64,000 nt of DNA from Cetorhinus maximus (taxonomy: Eukaryota), in contig NC_135902.1 in assembly GCF_964194155.1 (NCBI RefSeq), forward strand, positions 27,590,001-27,654,000, given 5' to 3'. The position numbers and the translations under genes are program-made. A model generated the notes under the pieces. It saw nothing but the letters and a program-made list of their open reading frames with translations. It was not told the origin of the DNA and searched no databases. Below are positions 880 to 59,818 of this stretch, in pieces. Numbering within the stretch: the stretch's first letter is position 1; the number at the start of each line of letters is the position of its first letter.

Positions 880-1900
880 TTGTTCCAGATTGATGTATTT
901 TATCTTTTGTTCTTGGGATGTGTTTGATGCTGGAAAACCTACCATTAATTGTGGTGGCAGTCCTTCTCCTTGAACCATGGCAGACCATGTTATAATGGTG
1001 CTCTCATGATGGTATCAAGCTGAAAATTCCAAGAAATGACCCAGTGACAATGAAGGAATGTTAATAGATGTCCAGTTCAGGCTGGTATGTGGCTCGGAGA
1101 GGAATTTAGAAGAGTTGGAATTCCCACAATATTACCGCTCTTCAATTTCTTGGTGGTAGAGACTACAGGAAGGGAGGTCATGTTGAAGTAGTCATGTGAG
1201 ACTAAGTGAAGTGCATCCTGTAGATCATGCATACAGGAGCCACTCTGCTCTGGCTCCAGAGGGGTTTAAAATTGAGTCCAGTGGCATTGAGGTTCATCCA
1301 TAAAACTAATTTGGTGCGGATGAAGCCAAGATTCTCGAATGTTGCCGCTGCACACATCTAGCAAAATGGTGAGCGTACGCCTGGTCCAGTAATGCTTCTG
1401 GTCAACAGTTAAAGGACGCTCTTTATTGTGGTGAGAATGCTAGTACCAGGCTGGATTTAATTCAGATTCTGCTGTCGGCTCATATGGGCTGTCTTCTGAT
1501 CAGGAAAATCTTGAATGGAGCTAAACCTTGGAATGCGCAGCAAACAAATTCACTCTTGACCTTATGGTAGAGGAAAGGTCATTAATGAAGTAGATGAGAA
1601 TAGTCTAGACAAGGATGTTTCACTCAAAGAACTCCTGGAAGAACTCCTGCAATGATTGATCTATTGCAATAGGTTTGACTGCAGCCATTGGAGGACTTAC
1701 CTTTCTCCCCTATCCATTGACTTCAATTTTACTGAAGCTTCTTGGTGTTATATTTGATCAAATTCTGCCTTGAGATTAGGACACCTGCCCTCACCTGTCC
1801 TGAGCTGAGCATTTCTGGTGAATTCCTAACTGAGCATCAATGAATATGTAACTAATGAGTAAATATTGTAATATTGATAATGCCTTCCTTCAATTTATTG
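880..1900 (-). mobile_element. Old, diverged fragment (RT region) of the LINE family seen at 46648-49600
   Basis: The reverse complement resembles the RT and 3' region of the 46.6-49.6 kb LINE (by-eye similarity). No intact ORF. Confidence 0.55.
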
Positions 1901-1921
1901 ATGATTGCAAGAATCAGATCC

Positions 1922-2619: not shown

Positions 2620-3785
2620 CCCTATATATTCCCAGGATACACATCGTTTCGATGGCGGGTGGGCTCCGATTCACCATCCAGGCTGTCACCTCGCTGCTTC
2701 ATCACGCTAGGCACCACATTTAAAGTACAGCCGTGCTCAGTGCTTCCAGCCCAGGACTGCAGCAAAGAAGACATGGTACCGAAAAGCAAGATGTCTGCAG
2801 CCCTCGAGCGCCTTTTGGATGTCGTGGAGGCCCGCTGCGATGTCCTCTACCCCCTCTCTGGCTGCAGGAGGGGCAGCAACATTACCACTCTGGCTTGATA
2901 GGCGATGGCAGTGGTGATCAGTTCCAAAGCTGCACAGAAGAGGTTGGCCATCGAGTGCAGAAAGAGGGTGAATGATCTCATTCATGCAGTCGGGGTATGG
3001 CAACCATCTCATCAATCTAAGCTCACACACTCAAGCCCATCACACATTCATTGGCATCTCACTCACTGCCAGCTCAAGGGACATCACCACTCATTCTCAC
3101 ACACATACCCTCACATGTCCATCTGGCCTCATCTCCTGTGGAGACTGCCTCCTCAGCCCTCACCCTCTTGGGGCCACTTGCACAGATCAACATGTACCCC
3201 CACACATACCCTCGGATACCCTCCTTCCCCAGTACAGCCCTTGTCTTGCAGCCTCTCCCCTTGCCTGAGGCCACTTCTTCCCCTCCTTCCCCAAGCAAGC
3301 CCTAGCCCTGCAGCTGTTGAAAAGCCACCCACATATGGCTGATCTGGTAGGTAGAGACCTGTTCATGAACTCCCCATAAAAGTGATGTGGTGCTGTCTGT
3401 GAAGCCTGGCACTGATGACTTTGAGTGCTGATTGAAGCAAGGTAGACAAATAAATGTTGAAGTCCCGAGCGAAGTGCAGCCCGCCAGGTGCATGCCTTAT
3501 ATATGCTGTTGTGAAAACATCGGCGTGTTTTCCTGCCGACATGGGCGGACGATCCAGCGGGGTGAGGGGGGTGGTGGGGAATGAGCTTGGTGGGCTGGCC
3601 TTATAATGATATACTGATGTATTCCAATTAGGTTCCCGACGTCTGATGGCGGGAACTGCGGCCCGCCATCGACAGGCTGAAAGGATGATGGCAAACTGGT
3701 TTCAAGATGTCATGAAACTTTGGCCTTTTAGCCATATTGTCTCCTAACACCACCGAACGCCAGCAGGCACAGAAAATCCCAGCCC
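2620..3785 (+). mobile_element. Non-autonomous PIF/Harbinger derivative (family B) with a degenerate Myb/SANT exon 1; left end truncated
   Basis: ATG at 2773 reads MVPKSKMSAALERLLDVVEARCDVLYP..., then AQKRLAIECRKRVNDLIHA, with a GT donor at 2995. The right TIR gaaaatcccagccc ends at 3785. Colinear with 25495-26738. Confidence 0.8.
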
Positions 3786-4548: not shown

Positions 4549-4679
4549 ATATTTCCATAGGTGACTCTGTGTCAAACTTTGTTTTATAATGCTCCTCTGA
4601 AGTGCCTTGGGTTGTTTCATTACATTTAAGGTGCTATATAAATATAAGTTGTTGTTTTGTCATCGAGTGCACTCAGCCT

Positions 4680-5290
4680 TGGCAGCAGGTCAATTAGAAT
4701 CATCTACTCAGCATTTTGGCTGACAAAGCTTCCAAATATTTAAGCCTTATCCCTTGCCCTCATGATTGACAATGGGAATGTTCATTGAGCTTCCTCCTCC
4801 AGTTAGTTGACTGGTTGAACGTCACCATCCTTGACTGGTTGTGTCGGGGAGAATAGCTTTGCTGTGCTCCATTTGGTGGGGGACTGCTTAGCTCTACCTA
4901 GAGCCTAGCTGCTGCTATTGGTGGTTAGCCTGCAGTTAACCTTGTGCAGCATCTATGGTTCTGTGAGTTTGACTATTTCAGACTGTTGCTTTGCTGACCT
5001 GTGGGACCAGTCTTCCAGTTTGACACCAGCTTGCAAATGTTATAATGCAAGAGATCGCCTAGGCCCTGTTCTGATTGATGTCTCCGAATCTGTCCATTTG
5101 TTAAATTACTTTTGAACTTTCCAGTGATTGTTAACTGATTAACTAAGCCATATCAGTGGACATGCAGCAGCATCAACCTCATGTTGTAGGATTAAAGTCA
5201 TGCACTTGCCAGATGAGGAAGAGGTGACAGATTGCCTTCTGTGAAAGACAGTAGTGAACCAGCTGGTATTTTATGACAGTCTGGTAGCTT
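4680..5290 (-). mobile_element. Old fragment (post-endonuclease region plus 5' UTR) of the tRNA-headed LINE family
   Basis: 4720-4860 matches the reverse complement of about 48100-48260. The minus strand of 5205-5285 (ccagctggttcactactgtctttcacagaaggcaatctgtc) matches the LINE 5' UTR at about 46820-46865. Confidence 0.6.
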
Positions 5291-17479: not shown

Positions 17480-20400
17480 GCTGAGATGGAATTAAAGTTA
17501 AAACACTAGTTAGTGAGTCTGGAGAGCAGAGGAAACATAGGCTAGATAAAAAAGAAGTGAGTTTAGCAAGGCTAAATGGAATATATTTTAATGCAAGGTG
17601 CCTGAGGAAAAAGACAGACAAGCTGAGGGCACAGATAGGAACGTGGGTGTATGATATTGTAGCAATGACCGAGTTTGGCTAAAAGAAGGGCAGGATTGGC
17701 AGCTCAACATTCCTGGTTATAGGAATTCAGATTCAGATGAGATAGAAAGGGGGTTGAAGAGGAGGGGAGTCACAATATTGATCAAGGAATCAATTATAGC
17801 AGTGAGGAGGGATGATATCCTGGAAGGATCATCAAATAAGGCCATATGAGTGGAAATAAACAACACAAAAGGGGAAAACACGCTGTTGGGTGTGTACTAT
17901 AGGCCCCCAAACAGTCAGGGAGAGAGAGGGTCAAATATGTAATCAAATTTCAGAGAAGAGTAAGAATAATAAGGCAGAAATAGTAGGGGATTTTAATTAC
18001 CCAAATATTAACTGAGGCAGTTTTAGTGTGTAAGGTAGGGAGGGAGCAAAATTCTTAAATTGCATCCAGGAGAACTTTTTTAGCCAGTACATATAAAGCC
18101 CAACAAGGGAGGAGGCAGTTCTGGACCTAATATTTAGAAATGAACCCGGGCAGGTCAAAGACGTATCAGTAGGGGGGCGCATTTTGGAGGTAGTGATCAT
18201 AACTCAGTTAGGTTTAGGATAGTTATGGAAAAGGATAAGGTTGGGCCAGGGATAAAAGTTCTAAACTGGGGAAAGGCTAATTGTACTAAGATGAGATGCA
18301 ATTTGGCCCAAGAGGACTGGGAGCAGCTATTTGCAGATAAAACTGTGTCAGAGCAGTGGGAGGCATTCAAGGAGGTAATAGCGAGAGTGCAGGGAAAATA
18401 TGTTCCATAAAGACAAAGGGGAGGACTAAGTCCAGGGAACCCTGGATGTCAAGGGACATAAAAATTAGGATTAGGGAAAAAAGAGAAGATTATGGCAGAT
18501 ACCAAGGGCTCAATACGGCAGAGTCCTTAGAGGAGTATAGAAAGTGCAGGGGGGATCTTAAAAAGGAAATTAGGAAAGCTAAGAGAGTGCATGAGAAAGC
18601 GTTGATGAGTAGAATAAAGGAAAACCCAAAGGGGTTTTTTGAATATATAAAGAGCAAGAGAATAACTGGGGAAAGAATAGGGCCAATTAAGGACCATAGA
18701 GATAATCTGTTTGTGGATCGGACGACGTGGGTACAGTCCTCAATGAATACTTTGCATCTGTCTTCACAATGGAAAAGGACGACGCAGGTATAGACACCAG
18801 GGTGGAGAACTGTGAAATATTAGAGGAAATTAACATAGAGAGAGAGGGGGTAATAGCGGGTATAGCGGCCTTAAAAGTGGATAAATCTGCAGGCCTGGAT
18901 GAAGTGTATCCCAAGTTGTTGAGGGAGGCAATGGAAGAGATATGAGGGGCCCTGGCAGTAATTTTCAAATCCTCTCTGGCCACAAGTGAGGCACCAAAGG
19001 ACTGGAGGACTGCTAACATTGTCCCATTATTAAAAAAGGGAGGAAGGGATAGACCAGGAAATTACAGGCCAGTCAGTTTAACCTTGGTGGTAGGGAAGTT
19101 ACCAGAAAGAATTCTGAGGGACAGAATATATCTGCACTTGGAGAGACATGGATTAACCAGGGATAGTCAGCATGGGTTTGTTAAGGGAAGGTCGTGTTTG
19201 ACAAATTTGATTGAATTTTTTGAGGAGGTAACTAGAAGCGTTGATGAGGCTAATGCATTGGATGTGGTCTACATGGAATTTCACAAGGTCCCTCATGACA
19301 GAGTGGTCAAGAAAGCCAGTGCCTGTGGGATCCATGGCAAAGTGGCACGTTGGATCCAAAATTGGATGAGGGGCAGGAGTGGAGGGTGATGGTAGAGGGA
19401 TGTTTCTGTGACTGGAAGTCTATTTCCAGTGGGGTTCTGCAGGGCTCAGTGCTGGGGCCCTTGCTGTTTATGGTGTACATAAATGATTTGGACTTAAATG
19501 TAGGGGTTACGATTAAGAAGTTCATGGATGACACGGAAATTGTTAGGGTGGCAAATAGTGAGGAGGATAGCTGTAAACTTCAGGAGGATATCAATGGACT
19601 GGTCAGGTGGGTAGAGCAGTGGCAAATGGAATTCAACTCCGAAAAATGTGAGGTAATGCACTTGGGGAGGGCTAATATGGCAAGGGATTACACTATGAAT
19701 GGTAGGACCCTGGAAAGTACTGAAGAGCGGAGTGACCTTGGTGTGCATATCCACAGATCTCTGAAGGTAGCAGGGCAGGTAGGTAAGGTGGTTAGGAAGG
19801 CATATGGGATACTTGCCTTTATTAGCCGAGGCATAGAATACAAGAGCAGGGAGGTTGTGCTGGAATTGTATAAAACGCTAGTTAGGCCACAACTGGAGTA
19901 CTGCATGCAGTTCTGGTCACCACATTATAGGAAGGATGTGATTGCACTGGAGAAGGTGCAGAGATTTACCAGAATGCTGCCTGGGCTGGAGGGTCTGAGC
20001 TATGAGGAAAGATTGGACAGGCTGGGGTTGTTTTCCTTGGGGCAGTGAAGGTTGAGAGAGAACCTGATAGAGGTGTATAAGATTATGGGCAGAATTTTCG
20101 GGTCGGTGAGTGGGGGTGGGGCCCGCTCGCTGACGTTTAAAATGACACACAATGACGTCGGGCGTGCATCCTGACGCCATTGTGATGTTTCGTGCGGCGG
20201 GTGAGTGCCGGAGTCAGCTGCGCGCCCGCCGAAATGTCAACGGCCAATAAAGGCCATTAAGAAATCAATTAAAGCAGTTAAGAATGCTGCCCATCCAACC
20301 TCAAGAGCCCAGGCGGCCTTCGCATTTTTCATGGAATCTCATCCATGGGCGGGATGAGGTTTCATGAAGTGTTTAAAAATTGAATTAAAAATTCATTGAC

Positions 20401-20960
20401 ATGTCCAGCTCATGTGACACTATCACATGAGGGGACATGTTTTAAAATGTTTTAATATCTTTATTTACATGTTTAAAACTTAAACGAATCTCCCTGATGC
20501 ACGTCTGTGTCTCAGGGAGATTTCTGAGCTCTTTCATGCACATGCGCGAAAGAGCACAGGCCCTGACTCAGGGAATCCCCCCCCCTCCCGCCTGCACAGG
20601 GAGCGCTCAGCACTTCCAGGTGTGCATCACGCTGGGCGGGCCTTAATTGGCCCACCCACATAAAAAGGCGGCGCGGGCCCGATCGGGGGCACTGATTGGG
20701 TTCGCCCCGCCCCCGCCTGCCCCCACACAACCCCCCCCCCCCCCCGACGCGGAGAAAATTCTACCCTATGAGGGGCATAGATAGGATGGATAGGTAGGCA
20801 CTTTTTCCATTAGTAGAGGGGTCAATAACCAGGGGGCATAGATTTAAGGTAAGAGGTAGAAGGATAAGAGGGGAGTTGAGGAGAAGTTTTTCAACCAGTG
20901 GGTAGTGGGAGTATGGAACTCACTGCCTGAAAGAGTGGTTGAGTCAGAAACTCTCATAAC
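17480..20960 (+). mobile_element. CR1-clade LINE ORF2 (endonuclease plus RT), frameshifted and interrupted by a MITE at 20087-20766
   Basis: Motifs YFNAR, GVYYRPP, VGDFNYP, LDLIF, SDHN, KSAGLDEVYP, NYRPVSLT, QHGFVKGRSCLTNL, SGVLQGSVLGPLLF, KFMDDT, WQMEFNSEKC, LYKTLVRPQLEYC, LSYEERL. Confidence 0.93.
20087..20766. mobile_element. Harbinger MITE (family A) inserted in the CR1 LINE
   Basis: TIRs GGGCAGAATTTT and AAAATTCTACCC with perfect TSD TAT (20084-20086, 20767-20769). Removing the MITE and one TSD copy restores CR1 YKIMRGIDR. Confidence 0.95.
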
Positions 20961-20961
20961 T

Positions 20962-21590
20962 ATCTCTTTCTCTTTCTCTCTCTATCCCTATCGCTCCATC
21001 TAACCCTCTCTCTCTATCCCTCCCTCACTCTATCCCTCTCTATCTCTCTTGCTACCTCTCTCTCTATCTCTCTCTCTCCTCATGTATCTCTGTCTCTCTA
21101 TCTTTCTTTGTATCTCTCTCTCTCACTGTCGCTCCCTCTCTATCTATCTCTCTCTCTTCATCCCTCTCTATGTCTCTCTGTCTCTCTCTTTCTCTATCTC
21201 TCTTTTCTATCTCTCTCTCTCCCTATCTTTCACTCTATCTCTCTCTATATCTCCCTCTAGGTCCCCCTCTATCTCTCTCTTCATCTCTCCATCTCTCTTT
21301 CTTTCTCTCTCTCTTTCTCTCTCTCGCCCTCTATATCTCTCTAATCTCTCAATTTTAATCTCTCTCTATCTCTCACTCTATCTCTCACTCTCTCTCTCGC
21401 TCTCCCTCTCTCTGTCTCTTCATCTCTCTCTTTATATCTCGCCCTCTATCTCTCTCTCTCTACTTCTCTCTAGCTCTCTATCTCTCCCTCTTTCCCTCTC
21501 TCTTTCATTATCTCTCTCTCTTTATGTTTTTCTCTGTCTCTCTATTTCTCTGTCTCTATCTCTCTCTCTCTCTATCTCTCTCTATCTCCT
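20962..21590. repeat. Long imperfect (CT)n/(CTAT)-rich microsatellite, polypyrimidine tract
   Basis: About 630 bp of near-continuous ctctct with interspersed atct and gtct. Confidence 0.95.
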
Positions 21591-25494: not shown

Positions 25495-26738
25495 CAGTCT
25501 TAGGATTGTCCCAGATTTGCACGAAGCGCGGTAGCGGGCAGATAAAACATTGTACCCGTCAGCCGTAATGGAGGCTTCTCACGCCATATCGTCCCAAGCC
25601 CACCGCATTAATTAAGCATTCCCGGAAAACACGCTGTTTCCATGGTGGGCCGGCTCCACTCCACCCGCCACACCGTCACCTCGCCACTTTATCACGCTGG
25701 GCGCCATATTTAAAATATAGCCGCACGCACATCTCTCAGTGCTTCCAGCCCAGGACTGCTGCAAATAAGACATTGCCCCGAAAGGCAAGAAGACTTTAGC
25801 CCCCAGGTTTAGTGACGCATTCCTTGAGCGCCTTTTGGATGCTGTGGAGACCCACCGTGATGCCCTCTACCCCTGCTCTAGCCGCAGGACGGGCAGTAAC
25901 ATTGCTACTCCGGCTTGCTAGGCGATGGCAGTGGCGATCAGCGCCAACGTTGCACAGAAGAGGTTGACCATCCAATGCAGAAAGAGGATGAATGATCTCA
26001 TCTGTGCCTCCAGGGTAAGACAACCATCTCATCACTCTCAACTCACACACTCAAGCCTATCGCACTTTCACTGGCATCTCACTCACTGCCAGCTCAAGGG
26101 ACACCACCCTCTCTCACACTCTCTCACACACACCCTGCACGGGCCACTTGCTCAGATGAACTTGTGCCCCCACACAAATCATGGGATACCCCACTTAACC
26201 AGTACAGCCTCTTCCCTTGCCCGAGGCCACTTCTTCTCCTTCCCTAAGCAAGCGCTAGTCCTGCAGCGGTACAAAGCCACCTCCGCCTTATATCCTCTGA
26301 TAGGTAGAGTCCTGCCTGTGCGCTCCCCTAAAAGTGATGTGGTACTGCCTGTGAAGCCTGGCGTCGATGACTGCGAGCGCTGCCCGAAAAAAGGTAGGTA
26401 AACAAACCTCGAAGGCCCAAGTGAAGTGCAGCTCGCCAGGTGCAGGTCACTTATGTGCAGTTGTGAAACACGTTGGCGTGCAATCACACCCACGTGGGTG
26501 GATGATCCAGTGTGGGGGAATGAGTCTGGCGTGCTAGTCTTACTATGATATGCATTTGTATTACAACGAGGCTCCCAAAGTCCAATGGCGGGAAACACGG
26601 CCCACCATCAATGGGCTAAGCGGACGATGGCAAACTGGTTTCACGAGGTTGTGAAACCGATTTTTAGCCTTTTCGCCATATTGTCCGCTCATGCCGCCAA
26701 ACATGGCTGATGCCAGCGGGCCCCTGAGAATTCCCCCC
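25495..26738 (+). mobile_element. Non-autonomous Harbinger (family B) with a degenerate Myb/SANT exon 1
   Basis: catatttaaa upstream. The exon at about 25772-26014 reads FSDAFLERLLDAVETHRDALYP...AQKRLTIQCRKRMNDLICASR, with donor GTAAGA at 26015. Right end gagaattccccc. Confidence 0.8.
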
Positions 26739-31284: not shown

Positions 31285-33023
31285 ATAGTCCTTGTGTTAT
31301 TAGGGAGTCCGCACTTTACAAAACTTGCCAGAGATGCAAGTAACTTGTTCTTCCCTTCGCAAGATCTTTCATTCAATACACGTTTTTATTCGTTGCTCAG
31401 CGTTAATTATTTAAGATGCAACCAATTCATTATTTTTTCATTCTTCCCTCCTCCTTTCCCAAAAAATAATCCTTTCTTTTTCTCAGATATTTGCATAATT
31501 ACTAAGAATTTCTTTTTTCCCTTTACCCGACATGGCGGGTTTGCAGTTTTTGTGGAATTTTTGGTCAAACTCTGCACCTGGACTAGGAGGCTATCCATTG
31601 TTTACGCTCCGACAATGAGCACCTTGGCCAAATGCACCATTCACCTGGCTTGGCTGATAGACACAGGGATGGATTTTCAACTTGCCACCTCGGTATCAAA
31701 CTGGCGTTTCAGATCAGCAGCTCCTTCAGCAACACCCGATTTTCCATTTGTTTTTCCATCAGAAAAACACAACAACATCGCAGATCTGACAGCAACGCCC
31801 CACTGCCATCAAACAGATAGCAATGCAACTTAAACACTCTTTGCTTGCTCCTCAGCACAGATGGTGTTGGTACTATTCGAAAACTGTTAATGTAACGGGA
31901 ATAATAAGTAGGCCAACATCAGTGGATATAATCAATGAATAACTTAACACACACACTGTCAAAAGAATAATGAGGTCTTTTTGCAAAAAGCGGGTGTTGA
32001 AAATGAAGGAACTGGGAAGGAAAATGGCTCAGCTATAAAGGGTAGAAATTGTGCTGTGTCTTGCATGGTTGTCAAAGTCTAGAATGGGCCAATTCAGGGG
32101 TGTGTTGGAAAAATGCCAGAAGTGCAAGCAACCTTACATTTGTCCAGGCCCTCAGCTGAGATCCCCAACAGCTTCCTGCAGGTCTGTTCTGTTTCTATCG
32201 ATGACCTTCATTATCTTGTGATCTTGTCTTAAATATTTGTGTAAATGTACATGAAGTCCTTAAATGTGAAACAATTTAATAGGTCCACAAAGAAAATACA
32301 CATAGGGGTAATCTGGGTGCACCACCAGATACCCATGCCCCTTAGAGACTCACAGATACACCAGTCCTGTATACTTACGTAATGGTACCTAAACATGAGC
32401 ATGTATTGTAAATAGTTATACTTCTCTGGAAGGGAGAAAGTATCTTTAAAAAGAAAGGGGGGAATCCTGCAATATGCCTTTAAGGGATAGCAGTGTGCCA
32501 TCACTAGGAGGAAAGGGGAAAGTGTGTCATGTGATCGAGGCCCAGTTTCACTTTGGACTGTAAGCAGAAAACAGCACGCACAGCTCTGCTGCTGATGTCT
32601 TCAAGCTTTCTATGCACATATATATGTTCTGATGTGCCTAGTTTAAATAAATGAATCCATAACATGTTTACACAATCCTTATATATCATTATAAAGACAC
32701 GACAATCAACAGATTTTTTGTTAGCTAAGGGCATCAGGAATAAGGCGGAATCGTCCCAGAGTTGCACTAAGTGCAGTGGCGGGGGGGGTAAAACAACGTT
32801 TTCCCTGCTAACCGCAATGGTGGCTTCTCACACTGTATTGTCCCAAGCCCGCCGCATTAATTATGCATTCCCAGGAAACACGCCATTTCCATGGTGGGCG
32901 GGTTCCCATTCAACCTCCACACCTTCACCTCACCGCTTCATCACGTTGGGCACCACATTTAAAGTGTAGCTGTGCACAGACAGCTCAGTGCTTCCAGCCC
33001 AGGACTGCCACATGGAAGACAGG

Positions 33024-34580
33024 ATGGCCCCGAAAGACAAAAAGACTGCAGCCCCCCCTCTTCAATGACGCATCCCTCAAGCGCCTTTTGAATGCCGTGG
33101 AGGCCCACCGTGATGTCCTCTACCCCCGCCCTGGCCGCAGGATGGCAGCTGCATCACCAATCCAGTATGGGGGGCAGTGGCAGCAGTGTCAGCGCCAATG
33201 CCCAGGAAAAGAGGACAGACACCCAGTGCCACTACAGGATGAATGGTCTCATCCGTTCCGCCAGGGTAACTTGTTCTTCTCATCACTTTCAACTCACACA
33301 TTCACAAACCCATCATACATCTACAGGGATCTTACACCTCAAGGGACAACACCACTAACTCTCACACACACCCTCGCATCTCCATCAGGCTCATACCCTC
33401 TCAAGCTCACATCCTCATCCTGTCCATGGCTCCACTCACAACACAAACATTCCATGCAGTGCCATGTGTCCTGCTCACACTCTCTCCATTTGATTCCTCT
33501 CAGGAGAAGCCTGCTCACATCAGCAGGGAAAGGTCCCAGACTAGGGGTGGAGTGGCCCACATTAGGCCCCTCACTCACTTTAAGGAGTGTGACATCACGC
33601 TGACTGGTGAGGACATGGACCCTGCCTGCGGTGACGGTGAGGTCGGCGGTGAACACCCACAAGAGGATCCTGCACCTCATCATCCCTCCCTCAATGTAAC
33701 TGTGAGTGCTCTCTCCTGCTTTTGACTCTGCTGCCATGCACTAATTATCTCTACTTTGGTTCAGAGGGAGATCTGCCAAGCGACCTACAATCTCAGCCAG
33801 CCAATCCCTCAGCTCCATCCACATCCTCATCTCCAGCCAAGAAGACACCTTCTCCATTGGAGAGCTGGAAATAAGCAGCCTGGAAGACCCGTCACAGCGC
33901 TTACCCACACCCTGGATCAGCGCAGAGACACACACCTCGGTGGGACCTAGATCTAGAGCAGCCTCGGGTTCACAATCTGATGGTCACTGCATGGACACAT
34001 GTCCGCAGGAGGAGGAGGCAGGCTCAGCCAAGCTCCCTGGCACTTGGAGGGCTGCTGGGGAATTGGCATCTGCGAGTCCGAGTCAGATGAAGAGCCTCTG
34101 GATTCAGCCTTCCAACTCATCCTGGAGAGTCAGCAGAAGGTGTGGGACCGTCACACAGAGCTGTTGGAAGCCCTCAACTGAGTAGCACATGAGTCGGACG
34201 AGTGCGTCCGCCTGCTCTCTGGTGAACTGGTGCCCACATGTGCGTGTATGAATGTCTCCATGGGGAGGATGACGGACGCCATGGAGACCCTGGTCCAGTA
34301 GAACACAGGTGTATGCAGACCTGCACTGCATCGTGGGAGCCATGGGTGAGTTCCTGCAGTGGTGATGCGAGAGGGAAACGGGGCACCTCGATGTTCCTCC
34401 ATGTGCTCCTTCCCCTCAAGGAGTCAGGCCCGCGCCCTCAGGCATCCAAGAGGAGGAGGAGTGGCAGCTGGACACCCCTGGGTCATCTACTCAGGAATCT
34501 CAGAGGCTGTCCTCTCCCTCTGAGTCCCCTTTGCCTGTGAGCCCCTCAACCTTGTCCTCTGTCACTGCAGAGGGAGCAGC
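33024..34580 (+). pseudogene. Myb/SANT-like (NAIF1/MSANTD-type) Harbinger DNA-binding protein, spliced and decayed
   Basis: Exon 1 33024-33265 (MAPKDKKTAAPLFNDASLKRLLNAVEAHRDVLYP...KRTDTQCHYRMNGLIRSAR, GT at 33266). Exon 2 from 33504 (EKPAHISRERSQTRGG, like the RRERxxTGGG motif). Probable exon 3 from about 33765 with a coiled-coil-like SAFQLILESQQKVWDRHTELLEALN. Frameshifts and stops present. Confidence 0.8.
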
Positions 34581-34859
34581 CAGCTGATGAGTGATTCTGG
34601 AGGGAGAAGTGTGTGTGTGTGGCAGGGCCTTTTGGAGCCTCGTGCAAGCTCTCTCCCACTCACACGGATCCTTCCTGTATCACACTCACCTCAACGTCCT
34701 GAGCATTTTCAGTGCTGCCTGCTGGGGTTCACTTTCAGTTGTCCATCTGAGTTGACCTGCATCTCCACCCACCCACTGATCACACTCCCATGCAGCACCT
34801 GATCTCACCCACCACGACTCTCATTTCACTTTCTGTTTAGACAGCATGGTCTGGATTCG

Positions 34860-36060
34860 GTTTTTCATGCCTCCATCTTTTCCCCTCCCCCAATACCCAT
34901 TTCCTTTCTCCCATCACTGTTGACCGACCCCACCCTGGGATCACCTTCCACCTCCCCTCCGTGACCTACCAGCCGCAGCCCTTTTCTTTCAGGGATGTCC
35001 AGGTAAACATGCACGTTCCCTTCCTTCCCGAAAACCCCACCCCCATCCACATTCACCTCCCTGACCTCCTCCTTCCCACCCCCAGGGTCCGTGTCTGCCT
35101 CCGAGTCCCCACCAACCACCCTCGCCGTTACCTTCGAACCCTCACCCTCCCACCCTCCCACCTCACTCTGCCCTCGGCCATTCCCTCGTTCCACACCCAT
35201 CCTCAGTTCACTCCCCAGGAGGCAATCATGGTCTCATCAGAGCCCTCCCCTGCACATTCACCTGGACAGCCCCCTCTGGACCCCTTCCCTCCTCCGCACC
35301 CCTTCCCCACTTGGAACCTCTTCACCCCTTTGAACCGCTTCCATCCTCCAGACCCCGTCCCCCCTTGGAACCCCTTCCCCCCTCCAGACCACTTCCCCCC
35401 TTGGAGCCACTTCCACCCTTGGAAACCACCACCCCCCACCTTGGAATCCCTCCCCCCTGCCAGACTCCCCTCCTTGGTCCTGCCCACTCCCCGCACCCCT
35501 CCCCCCCGCCAGACTCTACCGCCGCTTAGTCCCTCTCCATTCCTGACTCCTTCAGGCACCCTTACTTCTACCGCCACCCTTAGTCCTCCCCCACCGACTC
35601 TTTCCTCCAGCCTTATTTCTTCCTCCAGCATTATTCCTTCCCCCTTCCTGACTCCTTCAGGCACCCTTACTTCTTCCCCTCCCTTCACGCCTTCCTCCTC
35701 CCAGACTTCCTCCCCTCTTCACATTCCTTCCTGCCCCAGACTCCTTCCCCCCTCCGAACTCCTTCCCTTACACCTTCCACCCCACTTACACCCACCTCCC
35801 CAGTTGCTGTCTTCTCCTGTTACCTCCTCCTTCCCCCATAATCCCTCCCCCCTCACCCCTCCCCGACACCTTCATTCCCCCCTCCCAACCTCACTCCATC
35901 CTGACACCTTCATTCCCCCCATTCCCAACCTCACCCCATCCTGACACTCTTCTTCTCCCAATCGACCCTAGACCTTCCTCTCCCATCCCCCAGTACATCT
36001 TCCTCTCCTAAACACAGCTAGACCTTCCTCTCCACCCCCTCGACCATCATCCATTATGAG
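34860..36060. repeat. C-rich low-complexity tract with degenerate short repeats
   Basis: Repeated cccttggaaccccttcccc-like units and a duplicated ttcctgactccttcaggcacccttacttct (about 35540 and 35645). Confidence 0.8.
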
Positions 36061-43620: not shown

Positions 43621-45740
43621 ACCATGTTATCACCCAAGATGGCTGAGATGACAATTTATGAGTGGCAAGGTGATCTGTGAGAAATGTAATTCAGTTTTAC
43701 ATGAATAACAAACAAGGCAGTTCTCCATTTTCTTTGTCTTCTAGTTTCTTCGATTCTGATTTTTTAAAACTTGTGACCAGTGTGAAATTCTGGAGTGTTG
43801 CACAGTAGGTAATTTTTTGGCTAGGCAGGCATTGTGTTTGTGACAAGCACTTTCATGTTCTGTTCAATCGGGAGATGATTGACTTTATGCTCTATTTTGG
43901 GGCCATTTTTTTTTTAATGATGCAGTCACTTTACTGTGAGGAAAGAGAACAATTGCACATCTTTGCTCACATTGGCATTGTATGCAAGTGACAAGGTGAT
44001 ATTTCTTGAATACGGTCAGATATTTTTTGCCTTGTATTGCATCATTTTGTGAACAGATTTCAATAAATGCAACACTTAATTTCAAAGAAAATCAAATTGT
44101 ATGAGAGTTCTTTAAATTACACATTTGTCTCAAAGTTGTTCTGCAAAGGAGAGATTGGTGTGGAAAGTAGGTGCATAATTAGCAGATAATAGAATTTGCA
44201 GTAACATTGCAGTGTTTGGGTATTTTTTATTATTACTGCATAAACAGAAGTATAGTCCTTGGGTAATACACATTTTTCATATCTCTTAATAAATTGATTT
44301 ATCTGCCTAAATTCATCCCCAACACAAAAAAATTCACATGGAACTGGGTTGTAAATTGCCAATATATTTACATTATACCTATAGTTTTTTTCCCTCAAAT
44401 TTTGTATTTTTTCTAGGCCTCAGTTCTTGTCCATGTGTGGGAATGGCATTGTCAATGAGACTGAGTGAAGCTGTTATCTCTGAGGCCGCTAATGGTTGTG
44501 CATTTCAGGAAGGAGATTCAAAGAGCCTGCTGTATTCAGTTCACCTCTGAAGAAGTCTGTTGTCAGAAGCAGACAGATTCTTTTTTTCCTCCTGTACCTT
44601 AACACTTTGGTGGTTGCTATGGCTATCTCCTTGGAAATCAGTTGTTCGGAACTGGAAGCAATGCTGGGGGCAGTCTGAGTTCATCCACGTCACATGAGTC
44701 ATTTGAAATAGTCTCGTGCCTCACAGTTGGCTATCATAACTAGGTCTGGTCACTGGCCTAATTCACGGAGGTTAGTTCGGTTCCAAAGAAACAGAAATAA
44801 ACACACCGTCTTACAATTCTGCTGAATTGAAGTGGTGATTAGTGAATAAGTGAGGAAAAATTGAAAATCTTCAACAATTTTCCATCACACCCAGTGTATT
44901 TGCTCACTAACTAAATGATTTTGTTTTACCAGAAGAGTATTGATTTATTTTCCTTTAGTCCAAACATTTTCTCTATTTATAGTCTTGATTAATCCAGTTG
45001 CTGTTGAGACCTGCAATATTTCAGTAATATGCTAAGCCACAATGAATTGCATGCGTGACTAGTACAACTCCACACTAGAAATTTGTCAGTGTTGTTTTGT
45101 TTTTAGTGAGCCACACGGTGCTCTGGCATGGCCCCTAATGCCACAAATCAGGTTTGCCCTTGTATATTTAGATTTTAAAAATGCTTTTGTGTAATATGAC
45201 TGAAAATGTGAGCTGGTAACACCCTGTGAGGGAAATCTGAGTAAACAGGGAAACAATTCCTTAACCGATCAGATTGGAGGATTGTGAAATTTACGGCAGA
45301 AGGTCTGAGAAAGGAATGCAAACTAGAGTAGGTGAATCCAATGTTAAATCAGATACGGGGAGATAAATAAAGAGAGGGAAAGAAAGAGTCAGGGAAAAAT
45401 GACAGAACAAAATTTTTTTTTTAAATGACTTTTTCAAATCTCTAACGTCAATTAAAACCTAAATGAATGAGACGCCAAGCTTTTAATAGTTAAAATTCAG
45501 TTCCAGACTTAGCTTTCTGCTGCGAGTTTAGCCTGCGCCCACTGAGTAAATATAGCAGCTTCATCCCATTCAATGTATTTCCAATGGTGAGGCAGCCAGC
45601 AAGATGCTTCTGAGAGAAAATGGTGGAGCAAGGCATCTGGAACAGCAATTTTTAGAATTCCACATTTTAACTGTGCATCAGCCTTTGCCTGAAGTTACAA
45701 TAGCATTTGTGCATCAATAATGGTGAGCACCCTTGGCTGC

Positions 45741-45965
45741 TGTGAAGGGTTAACATCAGAAGCACTTGATGCTGATGTAACTATGATGTAATCTCACATG
45801 ACCAAGTGGCAAAGATCAGGAGGGAAGGAGAAGTATAACCTCATGTAGGATTACTAAATTTAAATTGAGCTGCAAATAAATAAAACTTCGGTCTTAAGTA
45901 GCTTTCTTAGTGAAACGGTTAAATCCTAAAGAGGCCCACCTTGACCCCAAACACAAGACGAAACA
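45741..45965 (+). repeat. Gypsy 5' LTR
   Basis: Shares aagggttaaca, cacatgaccaagt, ggagggaaggagaagta, aaataaataa, gtagctttcttag and caaacacaagacg with the 3' LTR. Followed by a PBS-like tgtggcagtgg. Confidence 0.85.
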
Positions 45966-46229
45966 TTGTGGCAGTGGACAGCGAGTAAAAGACCCAGAAA
46001 AACTCCAAGAAAAGACTGCAGGCCTGACAGACCTACAGATCCTTGGAAGAAGGATAAAAAGAAAACTGATTGAAGGTGCATCTGAAAACTCGGAACATCA
46101 TGGGTGCAGCTGATGTAAGCTGAGACACAAACCCAGAGTCTGGACAGCAGTGAGCACAGACCAGAACACTTACAAACCAGACTACTGAAGCAGCTGCATA
46201 CCTAGAGCTTAGGACATGGAGTCTGCATT

Positions 46230-46635
46230 GCCAATCCCCAGAACTATTCCAAAGCACTGAAGGCTTGCAACAGGCTCAACACTGGGACAAGTGGAGAAGG
46301 AGGTTTTCCAGATATCGAACAGCTTCAGGTTTTTATAGAAAGGGACAAAGGGATCAGCTCAGTACTTTACTCTATGCAGTTGGAGCTATAGCCAAAGATG
46401 TTCATAGTGAGACAGGGAATCGATGAGGACTCAAGTCCTTATGACGAAGTCCATACAGGTATTTGATTCGTATTTCAGTGTTCAAAAAAATGTAATCATT
46501 GAAGGAACAAAGTTTAATAAGCGGAAACCAAAACTGGGTAAATGCATGGATTCATTCATTAATGATATGCACGGGCTAGCAGAAAATTGCAACTACAAGA
46601 TCCTGAAAGATGTATTAATATGTGATTGCATCGGT
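46230..46635 (+). pseudogene. Gypsy gag N-terminal remnant
   Basis: WDKWRRRFSRYRTASG...QLSTLLYAVG; FDSYFSVQKNVIIEGTKFNKR...DSFINDMHGLAENCNY...DVLICDCI. Confidence 0.8.
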
Positions 46636-46647
46636 TTGACTTTTTCA

Positions 46648-46738
46648 GAGGCGATGGCTTAGTGGTATTGTCACTGGACTAGTAATCCAGAGACCCAGGG
46701 TAATGTTCTGGGGACCCGGGTTCGAATCCCGCCATGGC
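46648..46738 (+). promoter_or_regulatory. tRNA-derived (tRNA-Ser(AGA)-like) Pol III head at the LINE 5' end
   Basis: A box TGGCTTAGTGG 46655-46665; anticodon arm CTGGA-CTAGTAA-TCCAG; long variable-arm hairpin; B box GGTTCGAATCC 46719-46729. No good acceptor stem, so not a functional tRNA gene. Confidence 0.8.
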
Positions 46739-49600
46739 AGATGGTTGAACTTGAATTCAATAAAAATCTAGAATTAAAAGTCTAATGATGACCATGAAAC
46801 CATTGTCGATTGTTGTAAAAAGCCATCTGGTTCACTAATGTCCTTTAGGGAAGGAAATCTGTTGTCCTCACCTGGTCTTGCCTACATGTGACTCCAGACC
46901 AACAGCAATATGGTTAACTCTTAAATGCCCTCTGAAATGGCCTAGTAAGCCACTCAGTTGTAACAAACTACTACAAAGACACAAAAAAGGAATGAAACTG
47001 GACGGACCACCCGGCATCGACCCAGGCATCGGAAATGACAACGGCAACATTGCAGCACTGTCGACCCTGCAAAGTCCTCCTTACTAACATCTGGGGGCTC
47101 GTGGCGAAATTGGGAGAGCTGTCTCACAGACCAGTCAAGCAACAGCCTGACATAGTCATCCTCACGGAACCATACCTTACAGATAATGTCCCAGATTCCT
47201 CCATCACCATCCCTGGGAATGTCCTGTCCCACCGGCAGGACAGACCCAGCAGAGGTGGCGGCACAGTGGTATACAGCTGAGAGGGAGTTGCCCTGAGAGT
47301 CCCCAACATCAACTCCAGACCCCATGAAGTCTCATGGCATCAGGTCAAACATGGGCAAGGAAACCTCCTGCTGATTACCACGTACTGCCCTCCCTCAGCT
47401 GATGAATCAGTGCTCCTCCATGCTGAACATCACTTGGAGTAAGTGCTGAGAGCGGCAAGGGTGCAGAATGTACTCTGGGTGGAGGACTTCAATGTCCATC
47501 ACCAAGAGTGGCTTGGTAGTACCGCTACTGACCCAGCTGGCCAAGTCCTAAAGGACATAGCTGCTGGGCTGGGTCTGTGGCAGGTGATGAGGGAACCAAC
47601 AAGAGGGAAAAACATACTTGACCTCATCCTCACCAACCTGCCTGCCGCAGATGCATTTGTCCATGACACTATCGGTGGGAGTGACCGCCGCACAGTCATT
47701 GTGGAGACGAAGTCCCCCCTTCACATTGAGGATAACCCCATCATGTTGTGTGGCACTACCACCGTGCTAAATGGGATAGATTTCGAACAGATCTAGCAAC
47801 TCAAGTGAGGCATCCATAAAGCTCTGTGGGCCACCAGCAGCAGCAGAATTGTACTCGAACACAATCTGCAAACTTATGGCCCTGCGTTTCCCCCACTCTG
47901 CCATTACCATCAAGCCAGGGGATCAACCCTGGTTCAATGAAGAGTGCAGGAGGGCATGCCAGGAGCAGCACCAGGCATACCTAAAAATAAGGTGTCAACC
48001 TGGTGAAGCTATAACATAGGATTACTTGTGTGCCAAACAGCCTAAGTAGCAAGTGATAGAGCTAAGCGATCCCACAACCAACGGATCAGATCTAAGCTCC
48101 GTAGTTCTGCCACATCCAGTCGTGAATGTTGGCGGACAATTAAACAACTCACTGGAGGAGGGGTCTCCACAAACATCCTCACCCTCAATGAAGAAGGAGC
48201 CCAGCACAGCAGTGCAAAAGATAAGGCTAAAGCATTCGCAACAATCTTTAGCCAGAAGTGCTGAGTGGACGATCCATCTCGGCCCCCTCTGGAAGTCCCC
48301 AGCATCACAGGTGCCAGTCTTCAGCCAATTCAAATCACTGCTTAACTTGCCACGCCCCTAGCTAAGCTGTTCCAGTACAGTTACAACACTGGCATTTACC
48401 CGGCTATGTGGAAAATTGCCAAGGTATGTCCTGTACACAAAAAGCAGGACAAATCCAACCCGGCCAATTACCACCCCATCAGTCTACTCTCGATCATCGG
48501 TAAAGTAATAGAAGTGGTCATCAACAGTACTATCAGGTGGCACTTGCTTAGCAATAACCGCTCACTGATGCCCAGTTTGGGATCCACCAGGGCCATTCAG
48601 CTTCTGACCTCATTACAGCCTTGGTTCAAACATGGACAAAAAAACTGAACTCCCAAGGTGAGGTGAGAGTGACTGCCCTTGACATCCTCACCAACCTGCC
48701 TGCTGCAGATGCATTTGTCCATGACAGTATCGGTAGGAGTGACAACCGCACAGTCATTGTGGAGACGAAGTCCCCCCTTCACATTGAGGATAACCCCATC
48801 ATGTTGTGCGGCACTACCACCATGCTAAATGGGACAGATTTCGAACAGATCTAGCAACTCAAGTAAGGCAACCATAAAGCTCTGTGGCATCAAGGCAGCA
48901 TTTGACCGAGTGTGGCATCAAGGAGCCCTAGCGAAACTGGAGTTACTGGGAATCAAGGGGAAAACTCTCCACTGGTTGGAGTCGTTCCTAGCACGAAGGA
49001 AGGTGGTTGTGGTTGTTGGAGATCAGTCATCTCAGCTCCAGGGCATCACTGCAGGAATTTCTCAGGGTAGTGTCCTAGGCCCAACCATCTTCAGTTGCTT
49101 CATCAATGACCTTCCTTCCATCATAGAGTCAGAAGTGGGGATTTTCGCTGATGATTGCACAATGTTCAGCACCATTTGTGACTCCTCAGATACTGAAGCA
49201 GTCTATGTTCAAAAGCAGCAAGACCTGGACAATATCCAGGCTTGGGCTGACAAGTGGCAAGTAACATTCGTGCCACACAAGTGTCAGGCAATGACCATCT
49301 CCAACAGGAGAGAATCCAACCATCGCTCCTTGATACTCAATGGCATTACCTTCACTGAATACTATCAACATCCTGGGGGTTACCATTGACCAGCAACTGA
49401 ACTGGACTAGCCATATAAATACTGGCTACAAGAGCAGGTCACAGGCTAAGAATCGTGTGACGAGTAACTCACCTCCTGACTCCCCAAAGCCTGTCCACCA
49501 TCTACAAGGCACAAGTCAGGAGTGTGATGAAATGCTCCCTACTTGCTTGGATGAGTGCAGCTCCCACAACACTCAAGTAGCTTGACACCATCCAGGACAT
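46648..49600 (+). mobile_element. ORF2-only LINE (CR1/L2-group-like endonuclease plus RT) inserted into Gypsy gag; internal deletion, internal duplication, 3' truncated
   Basis: VLLTNIWGL...PDIVILTEPYL...HRQDRPSRGGG, WVEDFNVHH, EPTRGKNILDLIL, WKIAKVCPVHKK...NYHPISLLS, ALD/IKAAFDRVWH, QGSVLGPTIFSCFINDLP, FADD. Confidence 0.9.
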
Positions 49601-49759
49601 CTCATCCATCTCACCAACACACTACAAATCGTACGACCGACTGAGCTCAGAAAGCAAAATAAAGCAGTTGTTCCCACGGAAACAAATGAATGAGATCATT
49701 CAATACATCAGATGGAAAAGAGAACATTAAAGCAGAAGCCCGTGAAATCGGGGGAAAAG

Positions 49760-49900
49760 TGCACCAACCGCCTTCTTGAAATGCTCTCGGTGTGTCAGGA
49801 AAAACCTGCAAAAGAGGGAAGAATTCCCGGCATGGAGAGCAGAGTGCCACACCTGTGGAAAGTTAGGACATTTTAAAATTGGCTGCCAATCTAAAACACA
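49760..49900 (+). pseudogene. Gypsy gag zinc-knuckle remnant
   Basis: CSRC...PAWRAECHTCGKLGHFKIGC (CX2CX4HX4C). Confidence 0.8.
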
Positions 49901-50029
49901 AGTAGCTCATAAGAAGAAAGAGAAAACAATAAAGCCAAACCAAATACAAAAAGTGGAAGAGCCACAGATAAACAAATAATCTTACTAGTTAATGAAGTTA
50001 GTGAAACAGAAAATAATTACTGGAGCATG

Positions 50030-51620
50030 AAACTGGAATATCACCTGAAATTCCAGCGCACTACAATCCAACAATTACCAACAATGCTGGCAGCAGACAC
50101 ATTGTCTACAGGTTTGGGTGCAGCTTTCTTTCAAGTTGAAAAAGATGGTAAAAGAAGACCAGTTTATTATGCATCAAGATCACTCACAGACACAGAGAAA
50201 AGGAATGCAACCATTGAGAAAGAAGCGTTGGCAGCCAAACTGGTGTGCGAGAAGTTCTCTGGTTATGTGATGGGTTTAAGGTTTAAAATTAAAATTGACC
50301 ACAAGCCTTTGGTTACTCTTCTTAACCTAAAGGAGATTGCAAAGATACCTAGAATTCAATGTTTCAGACTCAGACAAATGAGACACAATACATTCACTGA
50401 GTACATTCAAGAGAAGTGCCAGATGGCAGCTGATGCACTGTCAAGAACACTAGTGGAAGGAACCAATGTGGAAGATATGGATTTCATTGAGGAAGTGGAA
50501 GCATAGACTTCAATCATTACCAAACACTTAACAGCCACTGAGAAGAGACTACAAGAGGTTAAGCAAGCAGAACAGCAGGATGATAAATGCATCCAAATAA
50601 AAGAGTATTGTCAGAGAGGGTGGCCAGATTATCCACCTAACAACCCAATACTACACCAGTACTTCGAACAGAGAAAACATCTCACAACCATTGATGATTT
50701 CTTAGTTATAATGACAGACAAGTCATCCAGAAAACACTTCAACATGACATTCTCTAAAAAAAAACATCAAGGTCACTTAGGGATATTGAAATGCCGAGCA
50801 AGAGCTTGGCAATCAGTGTGGTGGCCAAGCATTAGTCGTTCTCTCAAAGAATTAATCTTGAATTACCTTATACATGCAGTGAATAGCCAACAGCAGAGTG
50901 AACCGCTGGCACCCTCCACTTTTCCATTGTGGCCTTGGGAATAGATTTATTTGAGTTTAAGGGCAAAGTATTTATCATCATCATTGATTACTACTCCAGA
51001 TGGATTGAAGTGAAATAGATTGCACAGCGTCACAGTGGAGGCACTCATTCAATCACTGAAGAGAATCTTCACCACACATGGCTTCCCAGACATTGTAAAG
51101 TCAGAAAACGGCCCACAGTTTGCTAACAAAGTATTCCACAACTTTGTGCAGGAATGTGGTTTCATGCATATGACTAGCTTGCCTAGATGTCCTCAATCGA
51201 ATGGAGAAGCAGAAAGAGGAGTCAAACAATCAAGGAACTGATGAGGAAGAATGAAGATATTAACTTAGCCCTTAGTTACAGAACCTCACCACTACAAAAC
51301 GGATACTCACTGTCAGAGTTGTCAATGGGAAGAGAACTAAAAACGCAACTTCCAGCGCTAGAACAAAAAACTGTGAGCAAACATGACATCAGATGATCAT
51401 GAGAGAGTTAAAAATTGTGAGGAGCAACAAAGACGCAATCAAGCTTGTAACTTCAACTTCAGACACAGAGCACAAGGCTTAAAACTGCTGTAGCCCAGAG
51501 AGGGAGTATGGGTACGAGACCAACAGAAAAAATACATAATAGTAGAAAAAGCTCCTCAACCAAGGTCTTATAGAATCAAAACGGACCAAGGAAATATCAG
51601 AAGGAGCCAAAAAGTCTTGA
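50030..51620 (+). pseudogene. Gypsy pol remnant: RNase H plus integrase
   Basis: AADTLSTGLGA...RPVYYASRSLTDTEKRNATIEKEALA...DHKPLV...AADALSR; HQGHLGILKCRARAWQSVWWP; IIDYYSRWIE; IFTTHGFPDIVKSENGPQF...PQSNGEAERGV; LSYRTSPL. Confidence 0.9.
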
Positions 51621-51892
51621 AATCCTTGGAAAGGAAGCCAATAGCAACTTGCTATTCAGATCTGGATGGAGACAAGGAACAAGAAACAAGGCAAAGCTCT
51701 ACACCCAGGAGAAGGACACTCATATCCAAGGAAGAGAGATTGTAGGTAGTCCTCAACCTCAGAATGAGATCTGAACAAGATCAGGGAGTTTGGTCAAAGC
51801 ACCACAGGTACGAACCCTGTGAAGTCTGAGACTTTGCGGGGAGATGTAGAATAAGATAATTGTATATAATTGGGATGAAGACTTGGGGGAGA

Positions 51893-52241
51893 TGTAGAGT
51901 AAAGGGTTAACACCAAAAGCTGCTGATGGAACAATAATGCAATGTCACATGACCAAGTAACAGCGATCTGGAGGGAAGGAGAAGTACAACCTTGTGTAGG
52001 GTTACTGAGATGTACATAGAGCTGTAAATAAATAATAATGGTTTTACACACTACAGTCTTTCGTAGCTTTCTTAGGGAAACAGTCAAACCCTGAAGAACC
52101 CCATCTAGACTCCAAACACAAGACGAGTTCTGTTGAAGGGTCATGAGGACTAGAAATGTCAACTGCACTCTTCTCCGCCGATGCTGCCAGACCTGCTGAG
52201 TTTTTCCAGGTATTTTTTATTTTTTGTTACAAGACGAAACA
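51893..52241 (+). repeat. Gypsy 3' LTR, interrupted near its end by a Penelope-type fragment
   Basis: Homologous to 45741-45965; ends acaagacgaaaca at 52241. Confidence 0.85.
52126..52228 (+). mobile_element. Penelope-type terminal fragment with a hammerhead-like motif and a 9-bp TSD
   Basis: ACAAGACGA at 52118-52126 and 52229-52237. The insert matches the reverse complement of 63511-63610. Confidence 0.85.
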
Positions 52242-58700: not shown

Positions 58701-59660
58701 CGATTTGGCAAAGGGGTTGAAACAGGTGTGAGATCCCTGATTTACGAAGGCAATAAGCCAACCTATTTCAGACGAACACCCTGGACAACTCCCTGGTGTC
58801 CTGGTCAATATTGTGTGCGGTGCACTTCCGATGTTACTGGCAGGGCTACGGAGCCCAATTTGGTAGCTGATGTTAATCGTCTTTGACTTTTATTTACCTC
58901 ACGTTGGATACAGACGTCACTCTTCATTGATCATTTAATTAGCAACATTTAGATATATAGAGGATGATGCAGATCACCAGCAGTGTATACTGTACAATTT
59001 TTCCCTGCCCACTAAACTATATTAATGCTTTGACTTACCTTACTTAGTGTCGTATCTGACAACATCAGTGGTGTTAAGATTAACAACATGCTGATTTTAT
59101 TAACAGGCATTTATGATCTTTAAATATGTGTAATCATATCTTATCTAGTCAATAATTGAAGAACATACAATCTTGTAAAAATAACTATTGTAACCTAATC
59201 TAAACAATAGTCTAGTCTGGTTTGACAGGCAACTAGCCTATGACATATTCAATGTAGGTAGTTCATTTCATTAAAGGCAATGTTTAAATTATTTAGAATA
59301 GAAAAGTTAATAAAGTAGTATGAAAAGTAATAGGCTATCCAGTTTCTCCAGCTTGTCTCATCATTTATTAGGCCTTTGGGAAAGAAAGAATGTAGCTTAC
59401 ATTTCAGAACTTTTACTCACAAAGTTTGATCATATATTCCTATTTTCTTCTGTATTTTTTTTGAATATAACAAATATTGTAATTCAATGTTTACTGTGCT
59501 TCATGTTAGTTTATGAAATGGCTTGCCATGAGGCACAGCTAACGTTGAAGTGCTATCATTATTGCAATGTAGGGAATTGCAGCAACCATTCTGGCCTCAT
59601 GAACAATAACAATATATACGTTTTGGTGGTGCTAATTGAAAGAAAGATGTTGATCACAAA

Positions 59661-59818
59661 AATTGCTGAAAATACTTAGCAGATCAGGCAGCATCTGTGG
59701 AGAGGAACAGTTTAATGTTAGCTCTGTTTCTGTCCACAAATGCTGCCTGACCTAAAGAGCGTTTCCAGCAATTTTGTTTTATTTCAGATTTCCAGCACCT
59801 GCGGTAATTTGTTTTTTG
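59661..59818. mobile_element. Fold-back (inverted) Penelope-type terminus
   Basis: Arms aattgctg...tcaggcagcatctgtggag..aacag and ctgtttctgtccacaaatgctgcctga...cagcaatt, centred on aatgtt (59714-59719). Confidence 0.75.

Follow-up and report, generated by a model that had tools for sequence, protein, structure and literature searches.

The Locus and Its Features

The stretch of DNA analysed here (the window) comprises 64,000 nt of the Cetorhinus maximus genome (assembly GCF_964194155.1, contig NC_135902.1, positions 27,590,001-27,654,000 of the forward strand). Its plus strand carries, at 46648..49599, a copy of a Zenon LINE with 93% identity to the majority line of its family. The copy lies in the remnant of a Gypsy LTR retrotransposon (45742..52126, plus strand), whose LTRs, at 45742-45961 and 51899-52126, have 76% identity. 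A first-pass annotation of this DNA had placed the insertion in the Gypsy gag, and indeed a gag-like frame is found on the left and a CCHC knuckle on the right, with the LTR pair flanking both.

The copy begins with a tRNA-Ser(AGA)-derived head (46648..46739), followed by a non-coding body, or 5′ UTR (46740..46963), which together with the head forms the 5′ part of derived SINEs. After an in-frame stop, the long frame opens with an arginine-rich leader devoid of AUG (46964..47073), and a short ORF in the +1 frame, whose AUG is conserved, overlaps this leader. An apurinic-type endonuclease (EN) domain at 47074..47750 and a reverse transcriptase (RT) region at 48344..49359 follow, all on the plus strand; both are decayed, and were recognized through Pfam matches on a sister copy (PF14529/PF03372 and RVT_1, respectively). 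The RT region is split by a copy-specific duplication of 47625-47829, located at 48683..48887 on the plus strand and 95% identical to its source. Besides this 205-bp internal duplication, the copy has a 97-bp deletion and lacks the 3′ ~430 bp; the poly-A tail is missing in the window copy itself.

An older related copy is present on the minus strand at 4677..5281 (62-64% identity), comprising post-head body, the start of EN and a later ORF piece. As had been proposed, it joins the post-tRNA 5′ segment to ORF2, family positions 164-528 corresponding to 5281-4954 and 1372-1655 to 4945-4677; no tRNA head is detectable in it. Old RT and 3′ pieces on the minus strand at 951..1905 (~62% identity) are possibly the rest of the same copy, and a younger Zenon RT fragment (1914-2032, plus strand, 88%) is nested among the old minus-strand pieces. 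Fragments of other repeats are found at 18341-20048, 25505-26685, 2628-3741 and 32750-33394; the segment 18745-19916, with 28% protein identity to the Zenon ORF, is probably a CR1. The window also contains two stop-free frames on the plus strand (10445-11698 and 34841-35944, of 417 and 367 codons), a degenerate tandem array (20960-21588) and an imperfect palindrome (59659-59775).

The tRNA-Derived Head

The head was delimited by ARAGORN, by alignment to the tRNA-Ser(AGA) genes of the host and by the start of the sequence common to 39 loci. The elements that the first-pass annotation had listed at the start of the insertion can all be read directly on the plus strand: a Pol III A box (46655..46665), kept in the young and old majority lines and in published consensuses; an anticodon arm (46675..46689); a long variable arm (46690-46718); and a Pol III B box (46719..46729), which fits GWTCRANNC, the consensus quoted in PMC9073682. 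Shared lineage changes affect none of the eight non-CpG positions of the B box.

The resemblance to tRNA-Ser(AGA) was also confirmed, as the head aligns to the genome's own genes for this tRNA, with 14 of the 15 anticodon-arm bases identical. The variable arm is longer in the head than in the host tRNA, and the bases homologous to the acceptor stem have lost their pairing (alignment, by eye); the stem proposed by ARAGORN borrows the A box. The head (46651-46739) is the single ARAGORN call over the 64-kb window, and it is labelled Thr(AGT) because its anticodon is altered. A pattern search of the genome returned eight tRNA-Ser(AGA)-type loci and one head variant; ARAGORN, run on five of the eight, called all five tRNA-Ser(AGA). 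Five tRNA-Ser(AGA)-type genes, four of them checked by ARAGORN, are clustered on both strands within 95 kb (G000:C22:29872721-29966573, L141-L144), and the head variant (L139, G000:C3:94590910-94590956) retains the original AGA anticodon and has a short deletion in the variable arm. Rfam, searched over 45500-48000, revealed no known IRES or ribozyme family and gave a weak tmRNA match on the T-arm only.

Constancy of the Head-LINE Junction

The window copy passes from the head into EN with neither a poly-A nor a TSD junction, as had been claimed from the sequence, the VLLTNIWGL motif starting at 47074, ~335 bp past the head. When the head together with EN was used as a query, 40 loci were scored out of 13,747 candidates and all 39 non-self loci matched contiguously across the junction. 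In 39 loci fetched at 5.5 kb, the shared sequence begins at the head, no common sequence is found upstream of it, and all but three (36 of 39) extend to the same 3′ end, which carries a poly-A tail.

Since such a query favours joined copies, three other tests were run. With the head alone (40 loci scored, partly overlapping the previous ones), all 30 loci examined run into ORF2, one through an internal deletion, and no free SINE was found among them. With the EN protein, 12 of 20 loci examined (146 scored) reach the head and eight are cut inside the 5′ part, and no alternative shared upstream sequence was found at the boundary in these 20. Finally, an arbitrary sample of thirty-nine 10-kb stretches (390 kb) contained five copies with head and ORF, at 75-88% identity; summed matches to the family amount to 36.4 of 390 kb, about 9%. 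Scaled from these five counts, the genome would hold, as a rough figure, some tens of thousands of LINEs with the head.

Head-bearing segments, 81 in number, form an identity ladder from 67% to 94%. Contigs from four other organisms cover the element in all 30 bins, with pieces bridging body and EN in two of the organisms, which is a statement of presence only. The proposed absence of ORF1 is in agreement with these data, as only ~320 nt precede the long frame and nothing is shared upstream of the head in the fetched or EN-selected loci. The possibility that the head is normally a free SINE abutting ORF2 only here was not borne out: free head SINEs do exist and are ~2x commoner in the arbitrary sample, but the junction recurs family-wide. 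The results support the view that this LINE family, once autonomous and lacking ORF1, has the head as its fixed 5′ end, and that the head is not a SINE abutting ORF2 by accident.

Consistent target-site duplications were not found in 34 full-length copies, where a few matches of 7-10 nt were seen. A single decayed copy, used as a query in viral and metagenome contigs, returned no relatives. An alignment query retrieved 80 distant LINEs, at 24-41% identity; in none of them was the ORF preceded by a convincing tRNA head, and the sole relaxed ARAGORN match in that position (L203) was rejected, as it has no A or B box.

Coding Frame and Protein-Level Selection

The majority line was built from 37 aligned copies (L044, L050 and L065 were left out) and measures 3,283 nt (3.28 kb) before the poly-A tail. 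It consists of a head of ~95 nt, a body of ~225 nt, a stop, one frame of 969 codons, a 3′ UTR of 54 nt, with AATAAA ~45 nt ahead of the tail, and poly-A. Pfam identified Exo_endo_phos_2, Exo_endo_phos and RVT_1 on natural copies, and the body has no match, by eye, to a Deu or Meta domain. The first in-frame Met of the long frame is codon 284, past the endonuclease, and the leader codons include no CTG, GTG, ACG or TTG; the +1-frame AUG, ~80 nt upstream of EN, occurs in six of the seven published elasmobranch Zenon consensuses. The 5′ 473 nt of a single decayed copy folded no better than shuffled sequence (z -0.69).

Substitutions were analysed in 125 segments, distinguishing private changes (one copy) from shared ones (many copies). 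Private substitutions are distributed 759/752/772 over the three codon positions and 21% are synonymous, whereas shared, lineage substitutions are distributed 26/29/69, with 55% synonymous; this richness in third positions indicates that the headed element evolved as protein-coding. Built from 41 older segments (at most 86%), a second majority line departs from the first at 107 sites, of which most are third positions, and retains the open frame, the A and B boxes, the absence of T4 and the first Met at 284. Together with the pattern of shared substitutions, it argues that protein selection acted on masters that carried the head. Among the 146 copies scored none was intact, the longest open frame being of 784 codons, and any mechanism thus refers to past masters.

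Pieces of the ORF with 62-70% identity are contained in three annotated shark host proteins, P0001 (zinc finger), P0003 (transporter) and P0071 (FERM domain), either by exonisation or by annotation error.

Depletion of T Runs

T tracts terminate transcription by Pol III. A scan of the plus strand of the majority line for terminators of T4 or longer, which the first-pass annotation had put forward as a check, returned no T4 run and five T3 runs, against 15 T4 and 46 T3 on the opposite strand. The ORF contains three T3 runs, compared with about 11.4-11.5 expected when codons are permuted among synonymous positions, and none of 5000 shuffles was as low; runs of A, C and G are as expected under the same shuffle. 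Windows with four T out of five number one versus 5.8 expected (P=0.006). The absence of T4 alone is not significant (P=0.12 by synonymous shuffle, P=0.23 by a dinucleotide model), so the signal rests on T3 and near-runs.

A canonical CR1 of the same genome, whose majority line was built in the same way from 25 loci, served as a control: it has 36 T3 and 7 T4 runs in 2.9 kb and is free of T3 depletion. More distant controls were the 36 ORFs of at least 600 codons found among the 80 distant LINE loci, whose observed/expected T3 ratios are 0.75-1.17 versus 0.26 in the Zenon ORF; every one has at least two T4 runs. Phe makes up 1.9% of the Zenon ORF versus at least 3.0% in these 36. Low Phe (2.1-2.7%) is also seen in some invertebrate homologues, whose frames nevertheless begin with Met near the endonuclease. 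Many homologues of 930-960 aa, several with low Phe in that same range, are encoded on contigs of 3.2-4.7 kb (P0012, P0019, P0029, P0033, P0037, P0039 and P0044).

SINEs Probably Derived from the LINE

Shorter forms, consisting of the head joined to the tail, number 10 in the arbitrary 390-kb sample versus five copies with head and ORF, being thus about twice as common. The fetched loci contained seventeen such forms, which break near family positions 292, 301-305, 315 and 334 and continue mostly into the last 70 nt. They are 370-450 bp long, and these derivatives alone are short and non-coding, as a SINE is. Four SINE forms and several LINE pieces of the Zenon family are found within ~6 kb at L120:3852-9555. 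The SINE joint recurs in contigs of all four other organisms, in terms of presence only.

A tree of 37 heads (37 of 40 rows, three alignment-artefact rows having been dropped; 292 columns), including 15 young LINE heads, has mostly weak support; five younger SINEs are nevertheless placed among young LINE heads with support of 100/96, and the oldest SINE is joined to the oldest LINE heads at 95/81. A single clade of SINE heads is rejected (AU p=0.0016), SINE and LINE heads being interleaved. The simplest reading of these sequences is that the SINEs arose by repeated deletions from the LINE of the day and were not the donor of its head; exchange of heads is another possible origin of the interleaving.

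A Putative Pol III-Transcribed Coding LINE

A tRNA-derived promoter, the avoidance of T runs and the lack of a normal start codon together make the element a likely case of a protein-coding sequence read by Pol III, and we infer that the active Zenon masters were probably transcribed by this polymerase from the A and B boxes of the head. According to the proposed mechanism, TFIIIC and Pol III would start at the first base of the head, and Pol III would read 3.3 kb free of terminators, up to a T tract in the flanking DNA, as it does in Alu-type SINEs, where it runs on to a flanking T tract. Translation of this uncapped RNA would begin in the basic leader at a codon other than AUG, or else at the conserved AUG of the +1 frame, with a -1 shift into the long frame; the enzyme so made would use target-primed reverse transcription to copy the RNA that encodes it. 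As the transcript includes its own promoter, a LINE that lost part of its interior would be a ready-made Pol III SINE, and this would explain why the SINE heads track the LINE lineage through time.

The full scenario holds that an autonomous coding LINE has relied on Pol III since before the shark-ray split, with a 3.3-kb uncapped mRNA, a coding sequence rebuilt against terminators, AUG-less translation and repeated birth of SINEs by deletion; towards this we lean by a small measure. A product of 3.3 kb is far beyond the usual length for Pol III and uncapped RNA is poorly translated. Furthermore, the AATAAA ~45 nt before the tail would be equally in keeping with 3′ processing of a Pol II transcript, and a U-poor RNA could have been selected for other reasons. 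The earlier proposal of a once-autonomous SINE-LINE hybrid with a Pol III head was sustained as regards the constant head, the ORF1-less LINE and the protein-level selection, whereas the use of Pol III is a probable inference from the sequence.

The same AATAAA would also suit an ordinary Pol II LINE, with its promoter in the 320-nt 5′ region or relying on host co-transcription, in which the head was captured once, as a passenger or as an aid that binds TFIIIC, and where Pol III serves the short derivatives alone. PMC5786205, in the part available, treats LINEs as transcribed by Pol II, Zenon elements elsewhere have neither a Pol III promoter nor ORF1, according to the accessible part of PMC6740152, and the missing T4 runs alone reach only P=0.12. 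We consider this unlikely, since it leaves unexplained the loss of T runs over the whole coding region, absent in the host CR1 and in the 36 other LINE ORFs, as well as the missing AUG and the retention of both boxes, A and B, in sharks and a ray despite drift in the intervening arms. The missing AUG would be accounted for if the tRNA-like fold were instead an RNA signal, at which the element is released from a host co-transcript by RNase P or some comparable activity, leaving an uncapped RNA with a non-AUG start. ARAGORN does fold the head as a cloverleaf, and six LINE clades are described, in the portion of PMC5786205 at hand, as using 5′ self-cleavage, by ribozymes in R2 and RTE. However, the loss of acceptor-stem pairing, with the ARAGORN stem borrowing the A box, speaks against a processed fold and the signal offers no reason for the loss of T runs, which makes this explanation quite improbable.

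A non-autonomous passenger, that is, a long SINE-like chimera moved by another LINE and carrying its frame as a leftover, would be compatible with the lack of an AUG start and with the lack of intact copies among the 146 scored, but it is largely refuted by the lineage substitutions, rich in third positions and 55% synonymous versus 21% of the private ones, and by the young and old majority lines, both fully open in frame; it can be given very little credence. Free SINE forms with the same head (10 in 390 kb) might suggest a chance nesting, at this locus only, of such a SINE beside a 5′-truncated LINE; a junction found in 39/39 non-self loci, in the five headed ORF copies that the arbitrary sample contained, in 81 segments ranging between 67% and 94% identity and in the consensuses of five species refutes it and renders it hardly credible.

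LINEs are classically coding elements transcribed by Pol II, and SINEs are non-coding elements transcribed by Pol III. If the Pol III reading is correct, a natural Pol III mRNA of 3.3 kb for a 969-residue enzyme would break this textbook split, and would do so in an abundant family, matches to which amount to about 9% of the arbitrary 390-kb genome sample. The birth of SINEs by simple deletion of a LINE would, if true, reverse the usual account, in which a LINE fragment acquires the head of a SINE. The reach of Pol III, the translation of uncapped AUG-less RNA in vertebrates and the origin of SINE heads and bodies become testable questions.

Comparison with Known Systems

Elasmobranch Zenon LINEs, belonging to the CR1 group and named CarCar_, ScyCan_, RhiTyp_, HypSab_ and SquAca_Zenon, are reported in the available part of a recent study (Stuart et al. 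2026, PMC13343379) from five elasmobranchs, as elements without ORF1, with a poly-A tail and absent so far from repeat repositories. CarCar_Zenon-1 is, by eye, nearly identical to the family majority line over its first 400 letters and has a length of 3,288, compared with about 3,290 for the present family, and both have a poly-A tail and no ORF1; on this identity by eye over 400 letters and on the length, this family is the catalogued elasmobranch Zenon. The supplement of that study lists intact ORF2 in 3 of 612 copies for HypSab and in 1 of 1419 for RhiTyp. The element has several features expected of a Zenon, namely a single ORF with EN and RT, no ORF1, a poly-A tail and, by eye over 400 letters and in length, identity to a published consensus. 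It shares with SINE2 elements a tRNA-derived head with A and B boxes, while at 3.28 kb and with a selected frame it is neither short nor non-coding.

The head lies at the start of all seven elasmobranch Zenon consensuses, from five species, whereas two hagfish consensuses and one from coelacanth are without it (first 400 letters of each, PMC13343379 and its supplement). Six occurrences of two exact B-box strings were counted in the 400-letter cells of that supplement, every one of them in a row of elasmobranch Zenon. The terms "tRNA", "Pol III" and "polymerase III" do not occur in the available main text of PMC13343379, nor do "tRNA" and "promoter" in its available supplement, and no mention of T-run loss, an AUG-less start or derived SINEs was found in its accessible passages. 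The novelty envisaged in the first-pass annotation is therefore partly removed, since the family and its lack of ORF1 are already catalogued in those parts of PMC13343379, where the head goes unremarked; what is new here is the promoter, with what follows from it, rather than the element itself.

No description of an autonomous LINE with a Pol III head was found in searches of the open-access literature. A LINE containing a tRNA-like sequence that matches SINE2 heads is mentioned in one sentence (RTE-1_DAn and relatives, Repbase; Kojima 2018, PMC5786205), and no other paper naming RTE-1_DAn was found. Compared by description, RTE-1_DAn belongs to the RTE clade and Zenon to the CR1 group; the position and function of the tRNA-like sequence are not given in the portion of PMC5786205 concerned.

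Lepidopteran Zenon elements, as described in part of PMC6740152, resemble those of sharks in having a single ORF, a poly-A tail and short derivatives, named Persaeus, formed of 5′ and 3′ ends by deletion. However, Persaeus is described there without tRNA homology or a Pol III promoter, while the shark derivative is a tRNA-headed SINE, because its parent LINE carries the head. Bov-tA, CoeSINE4 and SINE2_Gav likewise combine a tRNA head, a LINE 5′ part and a LINE 3′ tail (PMC5786205, same portion); according to the bipartite-SINE model outlined there, the head is added after the deletion, whereas in sharks the full-length coding LINE is already headed. Sharks and other cartilaginous fishes have further abundant tRNA-headed repeats, SacSINE1 and the Deu-SINEs, of which SacSINE1 comprises a Deu domain and an L2 tail (available part of PMC5499810), while the Zenon body has, by eye, no Deu match. 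An identification of the 5′ part with SacSINE1 and its Deu domain was rejected, as no match was seen, by eye, to the Deu alignment in the accessible PMC7245038 supplement.

R2-type LINEs are known for a non-AUG start. R2 and other LINEs with a 5′ ribozyme have, like Zenon, a single ORF thought to work from uncapped RNA. The ribozyme LINEs, however, are cut from co-transcripts, as stated in the available part of PMC5786205, whereas the 5′ end of Zenon is a type 2 Pol III promoter.
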